Below the pieces are notes generated by a model that worked only from the letters and a program-made list of their open reading frames with translations, had not been told where the DNA came from and made no database searches. Source: an uncultured delta proteobacterium (lineage in GTDB: Bacteria; Desulfobacterota; Binatia; UBA9968). Taken from it: a stretch of 64,000 bases of DNA. Location of the stretch: the NCBI GenBank assembly GCA_963727625.1, contig CAVSHR010000002.1, forward strand, positions 672,001-736,000. The letters run 5' to 3'. A program made the position numbers and the translations under genes. This document shows positions 11,263 through 19,832 of the stretch, in pieces. Position 1 is the first letter of the stretch, and the number at the start of each line of letters is the position of its first letter.

Positions 11263-12351
11263 ATGCTGCTGATCAACAACCAGGAAGTTGAAAAGCTTTT
11301 CTCGATGAAAGACTGTCTCGCTGCGCTCGAAGACGGCTACGACGATTTGCTCAAGGGCGACGCGGTCTATCGGCCGCGCTTGGATTTATGGATGCCCTGC
11401 GACCGGCCGGACGGTTATTGGCGTTGGGGCACGATGGAAGGGGCGAGCCGCAAGATCGGCGTGTTCGCGATTCGCATGAAGTCCGATGTCGTCTACTGGC
11501 CCAACGGAGCGACCGAAGAAAAATATTGCATGCAGCCTGGCACCTGGTGCGGTTTGGTGATGGTCTTCAGCGTACGCAACGGGGAACCTTTGGCGATGAT
11601 CAACGACGGCTTGTTACAGCATATGCGCGTCGGTGGTTGCGCCGGCTTGGGTGCGAAGTATATTTCGCGCGAGGATGCCTGCGATGTCGGCATTTTCGGC
11701 TCGGGCGGCATGGCGCGCAGTTACCTGGAGGCGTTTTATGAAGTTCGCAAGCTCAAGCGGGTAAAAGTCTACAGTCCGACCAAAGCGAACCGCGAGCGTT
11801 TCGCCCGCGAGATGACCGGCAAGCTGGACATCGAAGTTCTGGCCGTCGACGAGCCGGAAAAAGTCGTACGCGAAGCAGATATCGTGGCGACCTGCACGGA
11901 CTCGACGCGGACGGTGTTCGACGAACCGGAGTGGCTCAAGGAAGGGGCGCACATTACCTCGGTGCGCGCCTGCGAGGTCGGGCCCCGAGTGATCAAGAGA
12001 TGCGATCTATCGGTCAAACTCGGAAAGAACACTATCGAAGCGATGGACGAAGGCATGATTCGCTTGCACGGCAACGTCGGTTACATCGCGGGACAGCCGG
12101 AGGAGCGCGCGCGCATACCCAACCCGGCCGTGGATAATTACAAGGGCGATTTCTTCAAGTACTTCATGGATGTCCGTTCGGGCAAGGTGCGTGGCAGGAT
12201 CAATAATCAGCAGGTCACTTATTTCATCAATGCCGGTACCCAGGGGCTTCAATTCGCTGCATGCGCGGGGAAAGTTGTCGAACTGGCGAAGAAACAGAAA
12301 GTCGGGCGCGAGCTGCCGACCGAATGGTTCTTGCAGGACATAAGGGATTAA
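11263..12351 (+). CDS. Ornithine cyclodeaminase / mu-crystallin family protein
   Basis: GEPLAMI, GIFGSGGMA NAD-binding, ADIVATCT and GLQFAA; AGGAGG RBS. Confidence 0.88.
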   Translation: MLLINNQEVEKLFSMKDCLAALEDGYDDLLKGDAVYRPRLDLWMPCDRPDGYWRWGTMEGASRKIGVFAIRMKSDVVYWPNGATEEKYCMQPGTWCGLVMVFSVRNGEPLAMINDGLLQHMRVGGCAGLGAKYISREDACDVGIFGSGGMARSYLEAFYEVRKLKRVKVYSPTKANRERFAREMTGKLDIEVLAVDEPEKVVREADIVATCTDSTRTVFDEPEWLKEGAHITSVRACEVGPRVIKRCDLSVKLGKNTIEAMDEGMIRLHGNVGYIAGQPEERARIPNPAVDNYKGDFFKYFMDVRSGKVRGRINNQQVTYFINAGTQGLQFAACAGKVVELAKKQKVGRELPTEWFLQDIRD

Positions 12352-12354
12352 TCC

Positions 12355-12425
12355 GTTTTGGGTTTCGTGCCTTGGGTTTGGCGTTGTCCTGGCGATTTGT
12401 GAACTCGAAACACGAAACCTGAAGC
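12355..12425. repeat. Inverted array of 7-nt GTTTCGN-like units
   Basis: GTTTTGG GTTTCGT GCCTTGG GTTTGGC ... AAC TCGAAAC ACGAAAC CTGAAGC. Confidence 0.6.
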
Positions 12426-12429
12426 GACC

Positions 12430-12484
12430 TCAATATCCCAGATCCTCAATCTCTTCCTGGTCTATTCCGAAGTCGTGGCGACCT
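12430..12484 (-). repeat. Diverged duplicate of the 3' end of the zincin gene (island boundary)
   Basis: 45/56 aligned identities with 17221-17276 (manual count). The minus strand reads HDFGIDQEEIEDLGY* versus HYFGMDEEDIEDLGY*. Confidence 0.85.
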
Positions 12485-12538
12485 ATTCAGAACCCTAACT
12501 TTTTTTGGGTTTCATCTTTAGGTGACCTCCTAGGTCCC

Positions 12539-15500
12539 GTGTGTTATTCTAATTTTGTTATGACGGTATTGGTTGGACAACCCATCGATGCACGTGAATT
12601 GGAGCAAGCCATAAGCCAGTGGTCGCCGGATAAGTTTGCTTCCATGTGCAACGATCTGGTTTGGGCTATTTCCGGTCGCCGGTGGCCGGGGATGCCGTCC
12701 TTTACGGAACGCGTCAATGCTGCTGACGGCGGGATCGATGCAGAGTGGGAGGTAGAAGTTTCGGATGGAGACAGCGTAGTCCCGACTCCGATTATCGGTC
12801 CAGGTTGGAACGTTTTCCAGTACAAAAAACGTGATCTCATCGCCCAGGATCGAAAACGCATCATTTCCAATGTTAAATCAGACCTGAAGGGAGCTGTCAC
12901 TAACCTTACACGAGCGCGCCAGCGGCTTCCAAGTCGTTACGTATTGTTTTTGAATGTCGATTTGAAGCATGACCAAACCGTAGCTCTAAAAAGTGCAATA
13001 CTGGAAGGGTACGACCGGGCATTGGGGGTTCACGTCGAGGTTATCGGGGCGGCTGAAATTGCCACCTTCTTAAATGACCAACCGCACCTTAGAGCGGCTT
13101 ATTTTTCTCCGCTCGCTTTCAAAACCTGGGAGGAAGCTAATCGCTCTCACCGCAATCAAAAGCTTTTCGGTTTCGACGTAGCATTGGTAGGTCGAGAGGG
13201 TCTGCTAACACGACTAAGGGATTTGGTTGATGCTCCCCATATTGCCGTGATTGTGGTTTCAGGACCACACGATATTGGGAAGAGTCGTCTTGTCCTTGAG
13301 GCCACTCATCATCGACCTCAGGATATTGTTTTTGCAGTTGATCCCCGCTCCATGAAGATTGATGACTATCGTAATCTCGTCGCAGAGCGGCGCAATGTTG
13401 TGTGCGTTGTCGAAGATCCCGATCCAGAACGAGTTGAACGGCTTATCAACGAAATTCTGGGCATCGAACGACTAAAAATAATAATTACTGTTCCGAATTC
13501 AGAGCAGATGCCGCCAATCTCGTATGGTTTGGATAACCGAGTAGAGTCATTATTTGTCGAGGGTTTAAGCGACGAAAACGCGCGTAAACTTCTACTGTCC
13601 ACACAGAAGCATCTAGACTTTGGTGTTGAGTCCTGGATTTTGGATCGAGCGGGCGGCAATCCCGGAATTTTGCTTGCAGCGGCAACGGTGGCAGAGACGC
13701 TACGAACCGAGTCTGGAAACTTTGAAACGGGCGTTGGGCAGGAATTTGCGAGACGGATCGAATTAGAGCTGAGTGGAAACTCGCTAAAATGTGCAGAGCT
13801 ATTATCCCCATTGACCCACGTTGGTATTTCAGGACGGTTCGAAAAGGAAATCCGCGCAATCTGCGATATCTTTGGTGACGGGCATTGGAATCTGACTGAG
13901 GTCTTTTCCGAACTAGAGAGTTTGGAAAAGACGGGATTGGCAAAAAGAGGGGGATCGTTTGCCGAGATTTCGATACCGTTTCTAGCTAATCATCTTGTAT
14001 CAGCGCTACTTCGCGGTCGAAAGGATGAATTATTCGCTCTCTTTGCAAGGTTAGAACAAGCAGGGAGAGTGAGACTGATCAGGCGCCTCTCGCAGGTCAC
14101 AAGCCCCGAAGTAAACCATTTTTGGGACGCCCTATTCGATCCTAACGACTCGCAAGCTCCGTTCGGCACTCTGTCATCTGCGTTGAATCAGTCGCAAATG
14201 CTGCGATTCATTGCTGGTGCCGCACCAGAAAAAACAATCGTCTTGTTAGAAAAAAGCCTGCTTGGAACAAGTCACGAGGACAGGTTAGCGATAACCGGTG
14301 ATGCGCGCCGGGAGATCATGTGGGCCCTTGAACAACTTCTTTTTCGGGCAAAGACTAGTCGGCGCGCTTTAACATTGGTCTGGCTTTTGGCTGAAGCGGA
14401 GACTGAAACCTGGGGCAATAACGCCACTGGTGTCTTGTTAGAGTGTTTTCATCCTTTGCATAGCCAGATGCCTCTGCCACTGGATGAGAGATTGGCGGCC
14501 TTGCGTGAATTTACGTCAGCTTCGGGTTCTAGAGACGGAGCACTCGTCGCGATTCGAGCCGCAGGAAAGGCTCTGAGCCAACGTGCTGTTGGACTTCGAC
14601 ACAGCATGGGAACCGCGCCGTTAGATAAGAGGCCGGTTTTTACTTATGGAGATTTGTACGACTATGCTCGTGATGTAATAGACCATCTCTTCTCGATCGC
14701 GGAATCTGCAGAGAACGAGATTGCCCACGCTGCGGTGGAACAATTGCCAACCTTAGTATCAGAACTGGCCACTCAGGGGCGACCGAAAGAAGCATTAGAG
14801 CGCCTTAACAAATTAGTCGCTTGGGCAGTATCAGAAAAGCCAGGAGTAAGCATCGCGTCTTTGTACAGGGTCCTTCACTTTGTTCGGCGAGTCTTTCTTG
14901 AACGCGCCCAAAAAAAGGACACCGATGCTAATGGACGTGAAGAATTTCAACAGCATGTTAAGGATCTTGAGCGCTTAGTTTACAGTCTGGAAAGTGGCGG
15001 CTTCTCTGTGAGACTAAAGAGATGGGCTAGCGGATGGCATTCAAAAGACCATGAAGAATTACTGATTAATGGGCAGAAAGTGTATCGATCAGAATACGAA
15101 CTGGAGAATTTAGCTAAAGAGTTATTATCGAATTCTGCGTTGTTGACCCCACAGATACTTTCGTGGCTTGTTTCTGGTGAGGCGAACCAATCTCATCAGT
15201 TCTTCTATCACTTGGGCAGATTGGATGTAGAAGGTTGTTTTCGCTCCAAGATGGTGAAGATTGGAACTGACAGTCGTGGATCAATAGCTTTTGCTTCGTA
15301 TTGGGGAGGTCAGGCAGAAATTGACCGAAGAAAAGCAGAGGCACGGCTAGAAGAACTCGCAAGTTTGGGGGCCATTGCTGGTAAAGCGTCTATTGCTACG
15401 GCCGCGCGCTTGGGACCGAGCAAATTAAGTCTACAAATAGTTCGGCATGAAATCTCAGTGGGTCGCGTCTCCTCCAATGACGTGTCTGAAATTCTCTATG

Positions 15501-16531
15501 GGGACTGGATCGAAAAGCTATCACCAGACGATTTGTTGAGCTTGCTAGAGATCATTGCAGGAAAGCAGTTCGAAAATGCAAAGGTAATAACTAATGTACT
15601 TACGAGGTGGATACACCACGATAAATCACTGGAGGGTCCGCTTGGGGAGTTTGCGTGGAAATGTCTGGAAGTTATGCCACCTGTTTTAGGCAACGAAGCT
15701 TACGATTGCGATCAAGTTGCTTCAAAATTGGCTCAAATAGACCCTGAACGGGGGTTTAAACTTCTTGAGAGCCTTTTGATGCAGCCTGAGGACAGACGAA
15801 GCTGGTGTCCGATAGATCGTTATGTGGGTGGAAACGATTTTTGGAGTGTCTTGCACAAATCTGACCCCCGGAAAGCCCTGCGGACGGTTTTTTATGTCGC
15901 TTTGCAAGACCCCTTGTACGGCTTCCGTGTGACGTGGAATCTTGAAGAATTGTTGAATCAAGCAGCTGACGCAGACATGTTGCTTGAGTTTGCTCTCGAA
16001 GCCGAGAATCACGCAATCCTAGTTGCTGAAAGCATCACAAGTGCCAAAGACGGCTTTTGGCCAATTGCTTTTGGTATTGTTCAGAAGTTTCCTACCAGTG
16101 AGAAGGTGCGGAATGCACTTACGCAGGGCGTCGAGCAAATGGGTCGCATTATAGAAGGCCCGTATTCACAACATACTGAGGCGTGCCGCAGAGAAGTTGA
16201 GAAAAGGCTGAGGGATCCAGGTACTCCAGCGGCAGCTCGCCCCTGGCTTCAGGATATCCTGGGCCGCCTAGAGGAAGAAATAGCTCAACATACCATTTGG
16301 GAATATGACGAAGACGCGAACGACCTACGACGATATATAGAAATTGAAGACAAAACTTCTCCTGAAAGGATTTGGGCTATATCGCGTGTCTTAAAGTATG
16401 CAGACTGGAAGGACGTAAGAAGGATGTTGACGGTTGAAGATATTGAGGACGTTCTCCCTCAAGTGGATTTACCTGAGAGAAAGCGTAAGGCATTAGAAAA
16501 AGCGCTGGAGGTTTGGCGTAGTGGAGTCTAA
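12539..16531 (+). CDS. Mrr-like nuclease-STAND NTPase (Avs/NLR-like) with long helical region and C-terminal antitoxin-like module
   Basis: N-terminal DGGIDA...FQYK; VGRE, Walker A GPHDIGKS, Walker B-like VCVVED and GNP motif; C-terminal IWEYD...RIWAISRVLKYADWKDV...ALEVW. The start may be ATG 12560. Confidence 0.75.
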   Translation: MCYSNFVMTVLVGQPIDARELEQAISQWSPDKFASMCNDLVWAISGRRWPGMPSFTERVNAADGGIDAEWEVEVSDGDSVVPTPIIGPGWNVFQYKKRDLIAQDRKRIISNVKSDLKGAVTNLTRARQRLPSRYVLFLNVDLKHDQTVALKSAILEGYDRALGVHVEVIGAAEIATFLNDQPHLRAAYFSPLAFKTWEEANRSHRNQKLFGFDVALVGREGLLTRLRDLVDAPHIAVIVVSGPHDIGKSRLVLEATHHRPQDIVFAVDPRSMKIDDYRNLVAERRNVVCVVEDPDPERVERLINEILGIERLKIIITVPNSEQMPPISYGLDNRVESLFVEGLSDENARKLLLSTQKHLDFGVESWILDRAGGNPGILLAAATVAETLRTESGNFETGVGQEFARRIELELSGNSLKCAELLSPLTHVGISGRFEKEIRAICDIFGDGHWNLTEVFSELESLEKTGLAKRGGSFAEISIPFLANHLVSALLRGRKDELFALFARLEQAGRVRLIRRLSQVTSPEVNHFWDALFDPNDSQAPFGTLSSALNQSQMLRFIAGAAPEKTIVLLEKSLLGTSHEDRLAITGDARREIMWALEQLLFRAKTSRRALTLVWLLAEAETETWGNNATGVLLECFHPLHSQMPLPLDERLAALREFTSASGSRDGALVAIRAAGKALSQRAVGLRHSMGTAPLDKRPVFTYGDLYDYARDVIDHLFSIAESAENEIAHAAVEQLPTLVSELATQGRPKEALERLNKLVAWAVSEKPGVSIASLYRVLHFVRRVFLERAQKKDTDANGREEFQQHVKDLERLVYSLESGGFSVRLKRWASGWHSKDHEELLINGQKVYRSEYELENLAKELLSNSALLTPQILSWLVSGEANQSHQFFYHLGRLDVEGCFRSKMVKIGTDSRGSIAFASYWGGQAEIDRRKAEARLEELASLGAIAGKASIATAARLGPSKLSLQIVRHEISVGRVSSNDVSEILYGDWIEKLSPDDLLSLLEIIAGKQFENAKVITNVLTRWIHHDKSLEGPLGEFAWKCLEVMPPVLGNEAYDCDQVASKLAQIDPERGFKLLESLLMQPEDRRSWCPIDRYVGGNDFWSVLHKSDPRKALRTVFYVALQDPLYGFRVTWNLEELLNQAADADMLLEFALEAENHAILVAESITSAKDGFWPIAFGIVQKFPTSEKVRNALTQGVEQMGRIIEGPYSQHTEACRREVEKRLRDPGTPAAARPWLQDILGRLEEEIAQHTIWEYDEDANDLRRYIEIEDKTSPERIWAISRVLKYADWKDVRRMLTVEDIEDVLPQVDLPERKRKALEKALEVWRSGV

Positions 16532-17213
16532 GGTAATGACTCCATTCCAAACAAGGGTCCTAGAGACTCTTTTTGAAAGTGGTCTCAGCGACCTCGGTTA
16601 TTTTTTTACCGGTGGGACAGCACTCGCTGAATTCTATCTTCAACACAGATTTTCCGACGATCTAGATATATTCATTAGAGAACATCAAAGCATAAAGGGT
16701 GATTTTACCAGCGTCAAACGACTCTTGGAGGAGAAATCATTCGAAGTGTTTTCGGAAGTGGCGGGAGATGAATTTGTTCGATTCTTCGTACGTGACTCTG
16801 AGGAGACGGGGCCCGGTCTAAAAGTTGAGTTGGCGAGACAGGCGGGGGTTCAATTGAGTCCGAGCATGGCCGTCGGCAAGATTGTGGTGGATTCATTTGA
16901 GGATATAGCCGTCAATAAAATTTGTGCGATCTACGGAAGGATTGAAGTCAAGGATTTTGTAGACTTGTTCTTCATACTAAGACAATCAAATTTCTCTCTC
17001 GATTACCTGGTTGCCCGGGCCAAGGAGAAAGACGCCGACTTCGAAAGAGAAGATACGGTACTCGAATTTGCCACGCGGCTTTTGGCCGTGGGAGAATTGC
17101 AATTGCATCAAATCCGGATGATTAAGTCATTGTCATTGGATGATCTCCGGTCTTATCTTAGACCTAAGGCGGAGGAATTGATTAGACTGTTTCGTCCGGC
17201 AAGGGTGCCATAA
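16521..17213 (+). CDS. AbiEii/AbiGii (DUF1814, MenT-like) nucleotidyltransferase toxin
   Basis: FTGGTALAEFYLQHRFSDDLD and NKICAIYGRIEVKDFVDL; overlaps the upstream stop by 11 nt. Confidence 0.9.
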   Translation: MESKVMTPFQTRVLETLFESGLSDLGYFFTGGTALAEFYLQHRFSDDLDIFIREHQSIKGDFTSVKRLLEEKSFEVFSEVAGDEFVRFFVRDSEETGPGLKVELARQAGVQLSPSMAVGKIVVDSFEDIAVNKICAIYGRIEVKDFVDLFFILRQSNFSLDYLVARAKEKDADFEREDTVLEFATRLLAVGELQLHQIRMIKSLSLDDLRSYLRPKAEELIRLFRPARVP

Positions 17214-17220
17214 AATCGTT

Positions 17221-17589
17221 TCAGTACCCCAGATCCTCGATGTCTTCTTCGTCCATGCCGAAGTAGTGAGCGATCTCATGCAACACCGTGAGGCGAATCT
17301 CTTCGCGAAGCTTAACCGGATCGGCAAAGTCACGCAGCAACGGTTCGGCGAAGATGGTTATTTTATCCGGCAACAGCGGCGGTTCGAGGCTGGATCGTTC
17401 GGGGAGAGGAACGCCTTGATAGAGCCCGTAAAGCGTATCGTGACGCGGGTCGAGCCCTTCGGCGCGCAAGAGCTTCGGACTTGCTCTTCCCTCGACGACG
17501 AATTCCAGATTGCGCAACTGGGCCCGGAAGCGGCGCGGTAGCCGGTCCACAATTTTGGCCACTTCTTCCGTGATTTGATGGATGTCCAA
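17221..17589 (-). CDS. Minimal zincin metallopeptidase (Zincin_1/DUF1025-like)
   Basis: LYGLYQGVPL, PDKITIF and TVLHEIAHYFG. Confidence 0.88.
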   Translation of the reverse strand: MDIHQITEEVAKIVDRLPRRFRAQLRNLEFVVEGRASPKLLRAEGLDPRHDTLYGLYQGVPLPERSSLEPPLLPDKITIFAEPLLRDFADPVKLREEIRLTVLHEIAHYFGMDEEDIEDLGY

Positions 17590-17609
17590 CGCCGCTGAGT
17601 TTCCCGCAA

Positions 17610-18818
17610 ATGTATTCCAGCTTCAAGCTTCTTAGTCGCGGTTCGCTAATGATCGTGACGATCTTTTGCTGCGGCTGTGTCGCGGGGCTCTCTCCCGACC
17701 GGGAGAAAATCACACCGAAGCCGGCAGCAATCCGCGATGATCTCGATGCCGAGTCCCTGCGCGCGGCAATTCGCCAGAGCCTGGTTTACCTGCAACAATT
17801 GCCGCCCGATCGCGTGGTCGGCGAACAACCGCGCCGATTCACCGCCAACGAAATCGCCAAATCCCTCTTGGCTTTCGAGAAATTGCTCGATGATTGGCAA
17901 TGTGCCGAGTGTGTCGCGCGCCAGGTCGCCGCCCATTTCGATCTCGTACCCTCCGGCGCCGATGCCGAGCGCGCCGAAGTGTTGTTTACCGGTTACTATC
18001 GACCGGTGTTGAACGGCAGTCTCACGCGCACGGACAGATTCCGCTATCCGATTTACGCCAGGCCCGCCGATCTGATCGGCGCCGAACGGGTTACGCTCGG
18101 GCCGAAACCGATCGTCGAAAGAGTGGTCGGCCGAGTTCAGGGCGAACAATTCATGCCTTACTATTCGCGGCGGGAGATTGACGAGGCGGCTGCCTTGCAA
18201 GGGCGCGGCCTAGAGATAGCGTGGGTCGATGATCCCGTCGATCTTTTTTTTCTGCATATCCAGGGTTCAGGCCTGATCCGTTTGCCGGACGGCGCGCAGT
18301 TGAGCGTCGGCTACGCCGGACAAAACGGCTGGCCATACCGGAGCATCGGACGGCTTTTAGTCGACCGGGGCGAGGTTTCCAGAGAAGATATGTCGATGCA
18401 GCGCCTGCGCCGTTATCTCAGCGACCATCCACAGAAGCGCGCCGAAGTCTTCAGCTACAACGAAAGCTACGTTTTTTTTCGCGTGCTCCAGAATGGACCG
18501 CTGGGCAGCCTGGAAGTGCCGCTCACGTCGAGTCGCTCCATCGCCACCGATGCGCGCTTGTTTCCCAAAGGCGCGCTGGTATTGATTCAAACGCAAATCC
18601 CGCGCATCGATAGCGCCGGTCGTCTGGCGGGATGGCGCCCGATCACGCGCTTCGCGCTCAACCAGGATTCCGGCGGTGCGATCCGCGGCCCGCAGCGCGC
18701 CGATATCTATTTCGGCTCCGGCGACGAGGCGGCCAGCTTGGCCGGTTACATGAACCGCCCGGGTAAAATGTTTTTCCTGGTGTCAAAATCGGCGCCGCTA
18801 ACAGTCAAAAACGAATGA
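17610..18818 (+). CDS. mltA: Membrane-bound lytic transglycosylase A
   Basis: FTGYYRP, FFLHIQGSG, SIATD and QDSGGAIRGPQRADIYFGSG (3D domain); lipoprotein-like N-terminus. Confidence 0.92.
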   Translation: MYSSFKLLSRGSLMIVTIFCCGCVAGLSPDREKITPKPAAIRDDLDAESLRAAIRQSLVYLQQLPPDRVVGEQPRRFTANEIAKSLLAFEKLLDDWQCAECVARQVAAHFDLVPSGADAERAEVLFTGYYRPVLNGSLTRTDRFRYPIYARPADLIGAERVTLGPKPIVERVVGRVQGEQFMPYYSRREIDEAAALQGRGLEIAWVDDPVDLFFLHIQGSGLIRLPDGAQLSVGYAGQNGWPYRSIGRLLVDRGEVSREDMSMQRLRRYLSDHPQKRAEVFSYNESYVFFRVLQNGPLGSLEVPLTSSRSIATDARLFPKGALVLIQTQIPRIDSAGRLAGWRPITRFALNQDSGGAIRGPQRADIYFGSGDEAASLAGYMNRPGKMFFLVSKSAPLTVKNE

Positions 18819-18959
18819 TTAGCTGCGAATTACGGCGAGCGCGTCATAATCGCTGCCCAAGAACCGGTGATCGGGTTTGCCCGATGGGTTCTTTCATTCA
18901 ATGCGCTACTTGAGCCATACGCAGCGGCAGGATAGCCTATCCTGAACCGATCACTCCCG

Positions 18960-19832
18960 ATGGAACGGCATAATGAAACACGACGACTGAAGTGGGCTTT
19001 GGCGATCAGCCTGCTGTATTTTTTTGCCGAACTGATCGCCGGCTTCATGACCAACAGCCTGGCTTTATTGTCCGACGCCGGCCATATGCTTTCCGACGTC
19101 GGCGCTTTGGGCCTGAGTTTGTTCGCCTTTCATGTGGCGAAGCGGCCGGCCACGCATCACAGCACCTACGGTTTTCATCGTGTTGAAATTCTTGCCGCGC
19201 TGTTCAACGGCTTGGCGCTGTGGATGATCGTAGGCATGATTTTCGCCGCGGCCTACAGCCGCGTGGCCCAACCGCCCGAGGTCGAGAGCTTCGGCATGAT
19301 CGTCGTCGCGGTGATCGGTTTGTTGGTGAACCTGGTCGCCGCGGTGATTTTGCACGGCGGGCACCATCACAATCTAAATTTGCGCGGCGCGTTCTTGCAT
19401 GTGATCAGTGATGCCGTGGGGTCAGTGGGCGCGATTATCGCCGGCGTGGTCATGCTGACCACCGGGTGGTATCTCGCTGATCCGCTCATCAGTATCGTGA
19501 TCGGCGTGCTCGTGCTGTTTTCGTCGTGGAGCCTGGTGAAAGACGCGCTCAGCGTGCTCATGCAGGCGGTGCCCAAAGGCATCCGGCTCGATGAAGTGCG
19601 GCGCACCATCGAAGCCGTCGACGGGGTCAGCAAGGTTCATGATTTGCATGTCTGGGCCGTGACCTCGGATATCTTTACGTTAAGCGCGCATGCCGTGGTG
19701 GAGCGCGGCGAAGATTTTCACGTGGTCTTGAACGGCATCGAAGACACGCTCAAGGACCGTTTCAACATCGAACACACCACGATCCAGTTGGAAACCGAAA
19801 GCCGCGAGGAAAAAGAATTTAAAGCCTTCTGA
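18960..19832 (+). CDS. Cation diffusion facilitator (CzcD/ZitB-like)
   Basis: SLALLSDAGHMLSD, NLRGAFLHVISD, VHDLHVW and HTTIQLE. Confidence 0.93.
   Translation: MERHNETRRLKWALAISLLYFFAELIAGFMTNSLALLSDAGHMLSDVGALGLSLFAFHVAKRPATHHSTYGFHRVEILAALFNGLALWMIVGMIFAAAYSRVAQPPEVESFGMIVVAVIGLLVNLVAAVILHGGHHHNLNLRGAFLHVISDAVGSVGAIIAGVVMLTTGWYLADPLISIVIGVLVLFSSWSLVKDALSVLMQAVPKGIRLDEVRRTIEAVDGVSKVHDLHVWAVTSDIFTLSAHAVVERGEDFHVVLNGIEDTLKDRFNIEHTTIQLETESREEKEFKAF

Follow-up and report, generated by a model that had tools for sequence, protein, structure and literature searches.

The locus described here raises the question of why the last ~80 residues of a long STAND-type protein resemble a small protein that is normally encoded on its own in front of AbiEii genes. 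The first-pass annotation of the window, i.e., of the whole 64,000-nucleotide stretch of DNA analysed, offered two answers: an integrated antitoxin domain, or a recent chance fusion of a STAND gene to a toxin-antitoxin operon. The former is favoured here. The genes at 12560-16531 and 16521-17213 probably encode an Avs-like sensor and an AbiE/MenT-type toxin, the latter being tied to the sensor by the tail, which would serve as an integrated antitoxin-like docking domain. This reading is preferred on four grounds: the tail is homologous to the small proteins, it is invariably present in the family, the nucleotidyltransferase (NTase) is strictly linked to it, and the same domain has been fused independently elsewhere. 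The features concerned are as follows.

12560..16531, plus strand: gene of the Avs-like STAND protein with the integrated tail (ORF listing; the 1323-aa database form is 100% identical)

12560..13177, plus strand: predicted N-terminal effector domain with an Mrr-like PD-(D/E)xK nuclease fold (AF2 model, VIA-align; motifs GIDAE ... FQYKK)

13184..13333, plus strand: start of the putative STAND P-loop NTPase (AAA_16 at E 3.3e-6, sub-threshold)

13778..16273, plus strand: helical middle and C-terminal body, the presumed sensor (partial PADLOC PD-Lambda-4_A match; column identities)

16295..16528, plus strand: integrated DUF6922-like domain of five helices (ORF, alignments, hhalign)

16521..17213, plus strand: gene of a short AbiEii/DUF1814-type nucleotidyltransferase (PF08843; 230 aa from GTG 16521 or 225 aa from ATG 16536)

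In the ORF listing, the sensor frame (12539..16531, plus strand) is open from GTG 12539 and codes for 1330 aa. The true start is likely ATG 12560, giving 1323 aa, because the protein collection holds the 1323-aa form and the homologues begin at the equivalent methionine. The N-terminal domain had no match in a Pfam scan. Its AF2 model (pLDDT 82.4) was closest in VIA-align to the N-terminus of Avs4 (8dgf_A residues 1-178; a moderate Z of 8.1, rmsd 3.5, 138 aligned), followed by AF1548, the LlaBIII Mrr domain, AspBHI and MspJI, the top rows all being PD-(D/E)xK nucleases; Foldseek returned weak rows at E 0.02 or higher. A Walker A motif, GPHDIGKS, is found at residues 242-249 (13262-13285), and its G242, P243, H244, D245, G247 and K248 are nearly invariant in the homologue alignment. 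Pfam AAA_16 matches the protein with 28.1 bits (E 3.3e-6), under the cut-off of 32.6, which is reached by four of the eight full-length homologues scanned (1181-1374 aa). The STAND label is thus weaker for the window's own sequence, since AAA_16 stays below its cut-off although the Walker A motif is present. Conservation is lowest in the helical body, with a mean column identity of 0.30-0.37 over residues 701-1190. No paralogue of the sensor gene was found by tblastn against the genome, i.e., the gene is single-copy, and a promoter and terminator scan of 12200-17400 gave counts no higher than in shuffled sequence.

The tail occupies residues 1253-1326 (window 16295-16516) and is followed by RSGV and the stop codon TAA at 16529-16531. 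The first-pass annotation had quoted it as the in-frame end of the STAND ORF, and this holds: the letters are as quoted and no stop separates body and tail. Its core motifs are WEYD ... WAIxRVLKYA ... LT ... LPxxDLP ... ALEVW, and it is better conserved (mean column identity 0.535) than the remaining protein (0.432). Direct searches of the tail in Pfam, NCBIfam and PADLOC yielded only noise (NRDE-2 at E 0.023). A Foldseek search of the tail model against the PDB gave nothing at E <= 0.001, the best VIA-align rows (Z 5.4) were to generic helical proteins, and the tail sequence profile had no match in the PDB. The tail has no solved structural relative, and therefore there is no binding mode to borrow.

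Searching the last ~85 residues alone, as had been proposed, did bring out stand-alone NTase-associated small proteins. In phmmer, the tail gave 93 matches at E <= 0.001 among 1.84 billion representatives, of which 24 were proteins of 57-126 aa aligned over the tail alone; the identities to small proteins were 27-40% over query residues 5-82. When an alignment of tails only was compared in hhalign with the stand-alone proteins of ~85 aa, the probability was 99.5% and E 3.4e-22, with 36% identity over 78 columns. By these measures the likeness of the tail to the small proteins is far above chance. The stand-alone genes are found within long contigs and have upstream genes of their own.

Some other database matches had another origin. 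Seven small ones (66-130 aa, 53-95% identity) proved to be fragments of long proteins on short contigs, three of them with upstream STAND sequence, and were excluded from the stand-alone count. All phmmer matches of 190-1000 aa were collinear C-terminal fragments of the STAND family and not separate forms. Two proteins without a match to the long protein (P0090 and P0098) were set aside.

The same annotation had named a DUF6922-like pattern in the tail. The part of this claim that concerns homology to small proteins 5' of short AbiEii NTases is borne out by hhalign and by the gene neighbourhoods; a direct Pfam match is lacking. DUF6922 (PF21956) matched neither the tail nor anything else in the genome at E <= 1, so that the tail stays below the Pfam gathering threshold of 27 bits. 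Among 30 free relatives and other small phmmer matches, three proteins reached a sub-threshold 20.8-24.6 bits. Profile comparison of the tails only with 20 true DUF6922 proteins gave a probability of 91.3% and E 9.4e-7. The broader tail-family alignment, which includes some likely fragments of long forms (the tails-only and stand-alone sets being clean), gave 96.1% and E 3.3e-9. In the domain tree, the tail and its closest free relatives split from true DUF6922 with good support (99/97). The tail and the stand-alone "YFxWDYD" partners are therefore read here as an unnamed sister family of DUF6922 rather than as members of it. A full-text literature search found no mention of "DUF6922".

The company kept by the free domain points in the same direction. 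A profile scan of 401 genomes of the window's phylum found matches in 24, with the fused form in the window's genome alone. For 17 of the 23 other matching loci, the ORF that follows was scanned, and all 17 proved to be AbiEii above the Pfam cut-off. A relative in the same taxonomic family carries the free small gene and the NTase at the same chromosomal place. Among the 74 metagenome loci whose downstream DNA reached 300 nt or more, 57 had a separate adjacent AbiEii gene and six an in-frame fusion of the domain to the NTase (63/74 together), while 11 had no NTase beside the small gene; this sample (80 loci) represents one subgroup of the free proteins and contains many near-duplicates, so these counts are not independent. 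The in-frame fusions provide a Rosetta-stone type of argument for direct interaction. One relative combines HTH_3 with DUF6922 (42.3 bits) upstream of AbiEii, which is the classic antitoxin layout. At true DUF6922 loci, AbiEii adjoined in 16 of 27 and was absent from 11. Since the NTase is missing at some loci of the small gene and of DUF6922, the linkage is not absolute. With a further 400 genomes, of the class that holds locus L032, the tail-family profile had no match, which shows little in a set without a positive control. Judging from these gene neighbourhoods, the likely role of DUF6922 and of its sister group is that of a partner to short AbiEii NTases.

Of the 122 proteins in the fused family, 109 carry the tail at the extreme C-terminus, with 0-18 residues after it; the 13 proteins without it are all truncated (733-1184 aa). 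The fused form persists down to ~44% identity among the family proteins and is also present in two loci at 26-27% identity. The record titles of the 11 STAND loci name Deltaproteobacteria, Binatia, Nitrospira and other Nitrospirales, Methylococcales (a locus that ends before the tail), Nitrospinota and Methylomirabilia. AbiEii lies downstream in all eight STAND loci with downstream DNA, the window included, with overlaps of 8-14 nt. Seven of the eight STAND-linked NTases fall into one group of the tree. The identities of tails and NTases are correlated (r = 0.91 over 28 pairs), which common descent would by itself produce. Tail and NTase occur as a pair, and both are absent from three full-length loci of true PD-Lambda-4_A (Avs8A). 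The junction at 16250-16300 was checked in independent assemblies and is bridged without an indel. One other study supplied a 35-kb and a 28-kb contig, from two runs and ~92% identical, that span 15900-16875 with no indel, and of the short contigs of two further studies, one covers the whole junction (16159-16428) and the other begins at 16266. On these comparisons, the fusion of the STAND gene and the tail is old and under selection.

The downstream gene starts either at GTG 16521, overlapping the end of the STAND ORF by 11 nt, or at ATG 16536, 4 nt after the STAND stop codon. Its product matches Pfam AbiEii PF08843 with 59.7 bits (E 5.5e-16; cut-off 22.5) and the PADLOC AbiEii profile at E 1.1e-14, and the nearest solved chains are 4o8s and 4ok0. 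Residues G26, G27, R38, D42, D44, K128, R135, D140, D143 and K165 are invariant in 22 NTases, and T28 and S40 are nearly so; the window's enzyme retains every catalytic residue. Threonine or serine phospho-acceptors have been described for AbiEii, MenT1 and MenT3, together with auto-phosphorylation induced by the antitoxin (bioRxiv 10.64898/2026.01.19.700257). T28 may be the equivalent of this phospho-acceptor. Like the sensor gene, the NTase gene is single-copy (no paralogue in tblastn against the genome).

Together, the two genes form one conserved, translationally coupled module. The first protein is laid out like an Avs receptor, with a predicted nuclease of the Mrr-like kind at its head, a putative P-loop as the switch and a helical sensor part that varies, and its tail is most likely the cognate antitoxin or docking domain of the NTase encoded by the next gene. 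The tail might bind the NTase and hold it inactive by occlusion and/or induced auto-phosphorylation, as in the case of the AbiEi and MenA antitoxins, so that each sensor molecule would carry one silenced toxin. When the sensor is triggered and oligomerised, or is destroyed, the NTase could escape this control and block translation, acting as a second effector beside the nuclease head. Binding, neutralisation, release on activation and an anti-phage role of the module are all proposed from sequence and gene context. The same applies to the antitoxin role of DUF6922 and the small-protein family and to the presumed toxicity of the short NTase subfamily. The integrated antitoxin domain suggested by the first-pass annotation fits all the evidence, its antitoxin activity being deduced from context. 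In E. coli, the second gene of Avs8 is reported to be dispensable for defence (bioRxiv 10.1101/2025.07.02.662641), and thus a conserved partner gene need not be an effector.

Other explanations differ in what they make of the joint itself and of the pair behind it. That the STAND gene was joined to a toxin-antitoxin operon by recent chance or by an assembly artefact has next to no probability. The free small gene and NTase at the same chromosomal place in the relative of the same family would suit such an origin; the fused form in 109 of 122 proteins and at the two distant loci, its spread over several phyla and the contigs of other studies that cross the junction without an indel refute it. 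It is also very improbable that the tail represents merely the last helices of the sensor solenoid, with a convergent or accidental likeness to the small NTase partners. An all-helical tail whose structural neighbours are generic helical repeats, and which Pfam does not match directly, could be expected of a solenoid end. A profile-profile match at E 3.4e-22 with 36% identity over the whole domain could not, nor could phmmer matches that extend to free small proteins, or a matching partner gene downstream in both the fused and the free settings. The long contigs with upstream genes of their own argue against the stand-alone proteins being mis-called fragments.

A different function for a genuine module is easier to defend. 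The toxin-antitoxin pair could guard the sensor in the manner of a lock or tripwire, the NTase being freed upon loss of the intact sensor ORF or of its synthesis. A nonsense or frameshift mutation, or a phage factor degrading or blocking the sensor, would remove the C-terminal antitoxin of the 4-kb ORF, and the module would enforce its retention or punish the attack. This is unlikely. In its favour, all 109 bearers have the tail at the very C-terminus (0-18 residues short of it), translation of the NTase is coupled to that of the last part of a long ORF, and both genes are single-copy. However, a small gene that fuses to the one upstream of it ends up C-terminal in any case. This guard function is compatible with the integrated-antitoxin reading. 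Less probable still is an NTase that is not a toxin but regulates or assists the sensor, docking on the tail or using it as a substrate; it would then nucleotidylate the STAND protein or one of its partners and so set the sensor's threshold. Strict co-inheritance of the NTase with the sensor agrees with such a role, as does the dispensability of Avs8B in E. coli. In HEPN/MNT systems, the NTase is reported to be the antitoxin (PMC7641770), and the modification of HEPN toxins by MNT enzymes offers a parallel. On the other hand, the window's NTase belongs to the DUF1814/AbiEii toxin family and not to MNT, and the domain-NTase pair is far commoner without any STAND protein; as the pair occurs mostly in this state, it must work on its own.

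For the preferred reading of the tail as an integrated antitoxin-like domain, a wider interpretation can be offered tentatively. A widespread family of NLR-like (Avs-type) receptors may have captured, as a C-terminal domain, the antitoxin of an AbiE/MenT-type tRNA-modifying toxin, so that sensing by the receptor or an attack on it controls the release of the toxin. This would be a prokaryotic counterpart of NLR-IDs and the first STAND-gated toxin-antitoxin system. Avs/STAND receptors and AbiE/MenT systems are each well studied, but as defence modules apart from one another; in this conserved family (109 tail-bearing proteins), a single domain joins the two types of system physically. If the tail does neutralise the NTase, the locus would provide a testable model of a sensor that holds and releases a second effector, or alternatively of a toxin-antitoxin pair that polices a costly immune gene. 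The natural fusions of the domain to the NTase offer a handle for structural work. No description of an AbiEii-STAND/Avs antitoxin fusion was found in the titles and abstracts surveyed, and the words "AbiEii", "nucleotidyltransferase" and "antitoxin" are all absent from the main text of a 2026 preprint surveying Avs; the supplements of such preprints may list these operons.

Among known systems, Avs8/PD-lambda-4 is the nearest named family. It shares with the window's module, as do other Avs (AVAST) systems, the predicted N-terminal Mrr-like nuclease, the putative STAND P-loop, a long helical C-terminal part, a size of ~1300 aa and a two-gene operon. Positions 417-760 of the 1283 in PADLOC PD-Lambda-4_A (Avs8A) are collinear with residues 414-755 of the window's protein at E 1.1e-8, a weak and partial match over 340 positions. 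Unlike the window, the canonical form has neither the tail nor the NTase (three full-length loci), and PD-Lambda-4_B had no match in the window's genome at E <= 10. Avs8A is reported to combine Mrr with STAND and to sense HK97-fold capsid proteins (bioRxiv 10.1101/2025.07.02.662641, 10.64898/2026.01.04.697583).

The AbiE/MenAT systems (AbiEi-AbiEii and MenA-MenT; type IV, now proposed as type VII) share with the window a DUF1814/AbiEii NTase with conserved catalytic Asp residues and a GGT motif. As in these systems, the sequence of the presumed partner comes before the window's NTase gene, to which it is translationally coupled. However, this partner is an ~80-aa helical domain at the end of a 1323-aa sensor and not an AbiEi/COG5340 winged-helix protein, and the NTase is of the short kind (~220 aa). 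In the Pfam scan, neither the 1330-aa protein nor the tail matched any AbiEi-type family at E <= 1. DUF6922 (PF21956) shares with the tail the core pattern FWDxD ... IIxRVLxxG ... FW and profile-profile homology; unlike its members, neither the tail nor its nearest free-standing relatives reach the Pfam cut-off, and some give no score whatever.

In the NLR-IDs of plants, the immune receptor incorporates a module that is otherwise a protein of its own. CapRel is described as a fused toxin-antitoxin (bioRxiv 10.1101/2024.10.26.620412). The likeness of the window to both is one of analogy only, with no relation in sequence. Unlike in an NLR-ID, the integrated domain of the window would pair with the enzyme of the next gene instead of mimicking the target of a pathogen.

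The STAND ORF of the window was listed at 12539..16531 on the forward strand (1330 aa). A 1323-aa form beginning with ATG 12560 is present in the protein collection (P0008), and the N-termini of the homologues align to the same Met in alignment A1, so ATG 12560 was taken as the probable gene start. The C-terminal peptide quoted in the first-pass annotation (hereafter, the tail) was recovered unchanged as residues 1253-1326 of the 1330-aa ORF (window 16295-16516), followed directly by RSGV and the stop codon TAA at 16529-16531. Two starts are possible for the next ORF: GTG 16521, which gives an 11-nt overlap with the end of the STAND gene, and ATG 16536, 4 nt past its stop; the tail thus closes the STAND ORF right at the toxin start, as had been claimed. 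This ORF encodes an AbiEii/DUF1814 nucleotidyltransferase (NTase; PF08843, 59.7 bits against a Pfam cut-off of 22.5; PADLOC AbiEii, E 1.1e-14), in which, by the NTase alignment, the catalytic residues typical of the family are all retained, as is the GGT-motif Thr. The genes are arranged as follows:

12560..16531, forward strand: STAND gene ending in the tail
16521..17213, forward strand: AbiEii NTase gene
17221-17589, reverse strand: small metallopeptidase-like gene (Pfam Zincin_1, PF06262), converging on the NTase gene end

The Zincin_1 gene is probably a housekeeping neighbour outside the module. At another locus (L026), a 136-aa ORF sits in the corresponding position.

Scans of the tail alone against Pfam, NCBIfam and PADLOC were uninformative. 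The phmmer search of 1.84 billion representatives with the 84-aa tail (E <= 0.001) gave 93 matches, including free proteins, and 90 of them were then aligned to the whole window protein. One group consists of full-length proteins of ~1170-1374 aa or their collinear C-terminal fragments, while 24 of the 90 are proteins of 57-126 aa similar to the tail alone (27-48% identity). Comparison by hhalign of the tails only (A9, 10 loci) with eight free proteins (A7) gave a probability of 99.5% and E 3.4e-22, with 36% identity across 78 columns. The proposal that the tail is normally a stand-alone protein is borne out by these small relatives and this profile match. Seven small, highly similar proteins were rejected as free forms, being fragments of long genes, and P0090 and P0098 were discarded as relatives, having no match to the long protein at all. 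Among metagenome proteins, the tail-type domain also occurs as a tandem pair (P0051, 182 aa), behind a GNAT-like piece (P0114, 149 aa) and with a 66-aa N-terminal extension (P0086, 143 aa); P0092 likewise has extra N-terminal sequence.

The DUF6922-like pattern named in the first-pass annotation stood in substance, as profile homology. Against 20 proteins above the Pfam DUF6922 threshold (PF21956; A8), hhalign gave 91.3% and E 9.4e-7 with the tails only, and 96.1% and E 3.3e-9 with the mixed set A4. Membership did not stand: in the domain tree, the true DUF6922 proteins form one side of a 99/97 split, and the tails group opposite them with free 'YFxWDYD' proteins. Judged by sequence, the tail is part of a family that is sister to DUF6922 and falls outside DUF6922 as delimited by Pfam. 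In 82% of bootstrap trees, the tails could have arisen once; the tree has few columns and weak resolution.

Profile matches were found in 24 of 401 genomes of the window's phylum, and among these 24 the long-open-frame form of the domain occurs in the window's own genome only. At the 23 other loci, the ORF immediately downstream was AbiEii above the cut-off in 17 of 17 tested; the remaining six lay at a contig end, lacked a neighbouring ORF or were too weak. The metagenome scan with A7 found 274 relatives, of which 80 were kept; 74 of these have 300 nt or more of downstream sequence. At 57 of the 74, AbiEii is a separate gene next to the small gene (55 by a purpose-built HMM, L047 and L048 by Pfam), at 6 domain and NTase are fused in frame, and at 11 the neighbours are unrelated, with no NTase beside the small gene; these are not independent counts because many loci are near-duplicates. 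In both sets, the stand-alone relatives precede AbiEii genes at most loci.

In a member of the window's taxonomic family (G291:C137, L003/L025), a free 91-aa small gene and a 221-aa AbiEii gene occupy the chromosomal place of the window module. Compared with window stretch 16295-19832, this cassette lies directly beside a Zincin_1 gene (Pfam; 62% identical to the window's), followed by MltA-like and CDF transporter genes in the order common to both; the two NTases share only 34% identity, and synteny does not extend to the left flank. The window's own genome carries two more AbiEii-family NTases of a longer kind (G000:C5:273-911 and C5:833698-834369; open frames of 396 and 317 aa).

True DUF6922 genes adjoin AbiEii in 16 of 27 loci, with the NTase downstream in 14 and upstream in 2. 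At one AbiEii locus (L024), HTH_3 and DUF6922 (42.3 bits) stand upstream of the NTase, the usual layout for an autoregulating antitoxin. At L147 (G287:C9:7813-10956), a true DUF6922 small gene with no NTase near it lies between the Cas10/Cmr2 and Cmr3 genes of a type III CRISPR locus; at L149, a HEPN-domain gene follows the DUF6922 gene by ~300 nt on the same strand.

The domain was also found joined to its own NTase:

L067, L091, L099, L105, L113, L120, L116 (e.g. L067:1965-2984): single-chain domain-NTase fusions, 291-352 aa

These chains have a Pro/Gly-rich linker of 25-40 aa and fall into a single clade of the domain tree (99/93). Sequencing error is excluded because the clade has diverged (52-92% identity); the fusion is real and independent, and the chains look like fused toxin-antitoxins. 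The domain has thus been joined separately to three partners: an HTH domain, its own NTase and the STAND protein.

The earlier alternative of a recent chance fusion between STAND gene and toxin-antitoxin operon is ruled out. The tail is present in 109 of 122 family proteins, ending 0-18 residues from the C-terminus, and the other 13 are all truncated (733-1184 aa); the set draws on the best 120 of 213 matches, so tail-less relatives may exist further out. In species genomes, eleven loci carry titles naming Deltaproteobacteria, Binatia, Nitrospira and other Nitrospirales, Methylococcales, Nitrospinota and Methylomirabilia. AbiEii is next in all eight of these having downstream DNA; an overlap of 8-14 nt between NTase start and STAND stop was seen in 8/8 loci examined, the window among them. 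The junction, checked on assembled contigs rather than raw reads, is bridged by contigs of 35 and 28 kb (two runs, one study) spanning 15900-16875 with no indel and 75 differences in 976 bases, and short contigs from two other studies span 16159-16428 and 16266-16416. Of eight STAND-linked NTases, seven group together in the NTase tree (94/97), the eighth lying on a long, unresolved branch. Three full-length loci of true Avs8A, from genomes of another class, lack both the tail and an AbiEii neighbour; from this and the 8/8 linkage, tail and NTase travel as a pair. For 61 full-length proteins, column identity averages 0.535 within the tail, 0.432 outside it and 0.30-0.37 for the sensor body. 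P0019 as a whole shares 62% identity with the window protein but has a near-identical tail (A1), reflecting either unusually strong tail constraint or exchange of the 3' end together with the NTase.

The only Pfam match of the window protein is AAA_16 at residues 216-265 (28.1 bits, under the cut-off of 32.6); of 8 full-length proteins scanned (1181-1374 aa), 4 reach this cut-off; the Walker A motif GPHDIGKS is nearly invariant across the family (A1). The AF2 model of residues 8-213 (pLDDT 82.4) has as its top VIA-align match the Avs4 nuclease head (8dgf_A residues 1-178; Z 8.1, rmsd 3.5, 138 aligned), followed by AF1548, the LlaBIII Mrr domain, AspBHI and MspJI; Foldseek gave weak rows of the same nuclease kind. 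PADLOC PD-Lambda-4_A matched partially (residues 414-755 collinear with model positions 417-760 of 1283, E 1.1e-8), and the profile search of the window's genome gave no match to PD-Lambda-4_B. From sequence and model, the protein therefore appears to be built like an Avs receptor; as far as the available models go, it lies outside Avs8. The window's genome has another long open frame (L038, G000:C5:314919-315167; 1273 aa) with a faint PD-Lambda-4_A match (E 0.12) and no tail; it would be at most a distant STAND relative, since tblastn with the window protein does not recover it.

AbiEii, MenT1 and MenT3 are described as extending tRNA 3' ends, which halts translation, unless antitoxin binding repositions a Thr/Ser phospho-acceptor and so leads to inactivating auto-phosphorylation (bioRxiv 10.64898/2026.01.19.700257). 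Beside the observed homology, linkage, conservation and independent fusions, we infer a similar working here: the tail would bind and neutralise the NTase, leaving the sensor with a second, dormant effector. Once the STAND protein is triggered and oligomerises, or is lost, the NTase would be released, and translation arrest would come on top of the predicted nuclease activity of the head domain. Tail and NTase may instead guard the sensor gene as a lock or tripwire, which agrees with the putative antitoxin being encoded at the very end of a 4-kb ORF, in its final 80 codons. That the NTase regulates the sensor rather than being a toxin is less likely, because the domain-NTase pair usually occurs without any STAND protein.

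Full-text search found no paper on DUF6922, and among the matches listed for AbiEii with STAND, Avs or antitoxin, no title or abstract describes such a fusion. AbiEii, nucleotidyltransferase and antitoxin are absent from the main text of the 2026 Avs survey preprint; such operons may be listed in the supplements to this or the other preprints. What appears new is a hitherto uncharacterised partner family of short AbiEii NTases, its incorporation into a STAND receptor, and the independence of its HTH, NTase and STAND fusions. Taken singly, the parts are of familiar types: a STAND receptor resembling the Avs proteins, and an NTase of the AbiE/MenT type. The N-terminal model is structurally closest to the nuclease head of Avs4, and the putative Mrr-like and STAND build is shared with PD-lambda-4, since renamed Avs8, which preprints describe as an Mrr-nuclease and STAND receptor of HK97-fold capsid proteins with a dispensable second gene, Avs8B (bioRxiv 10.1101/2025.07.02.662641, 10.64898/2026.01.04.697583).
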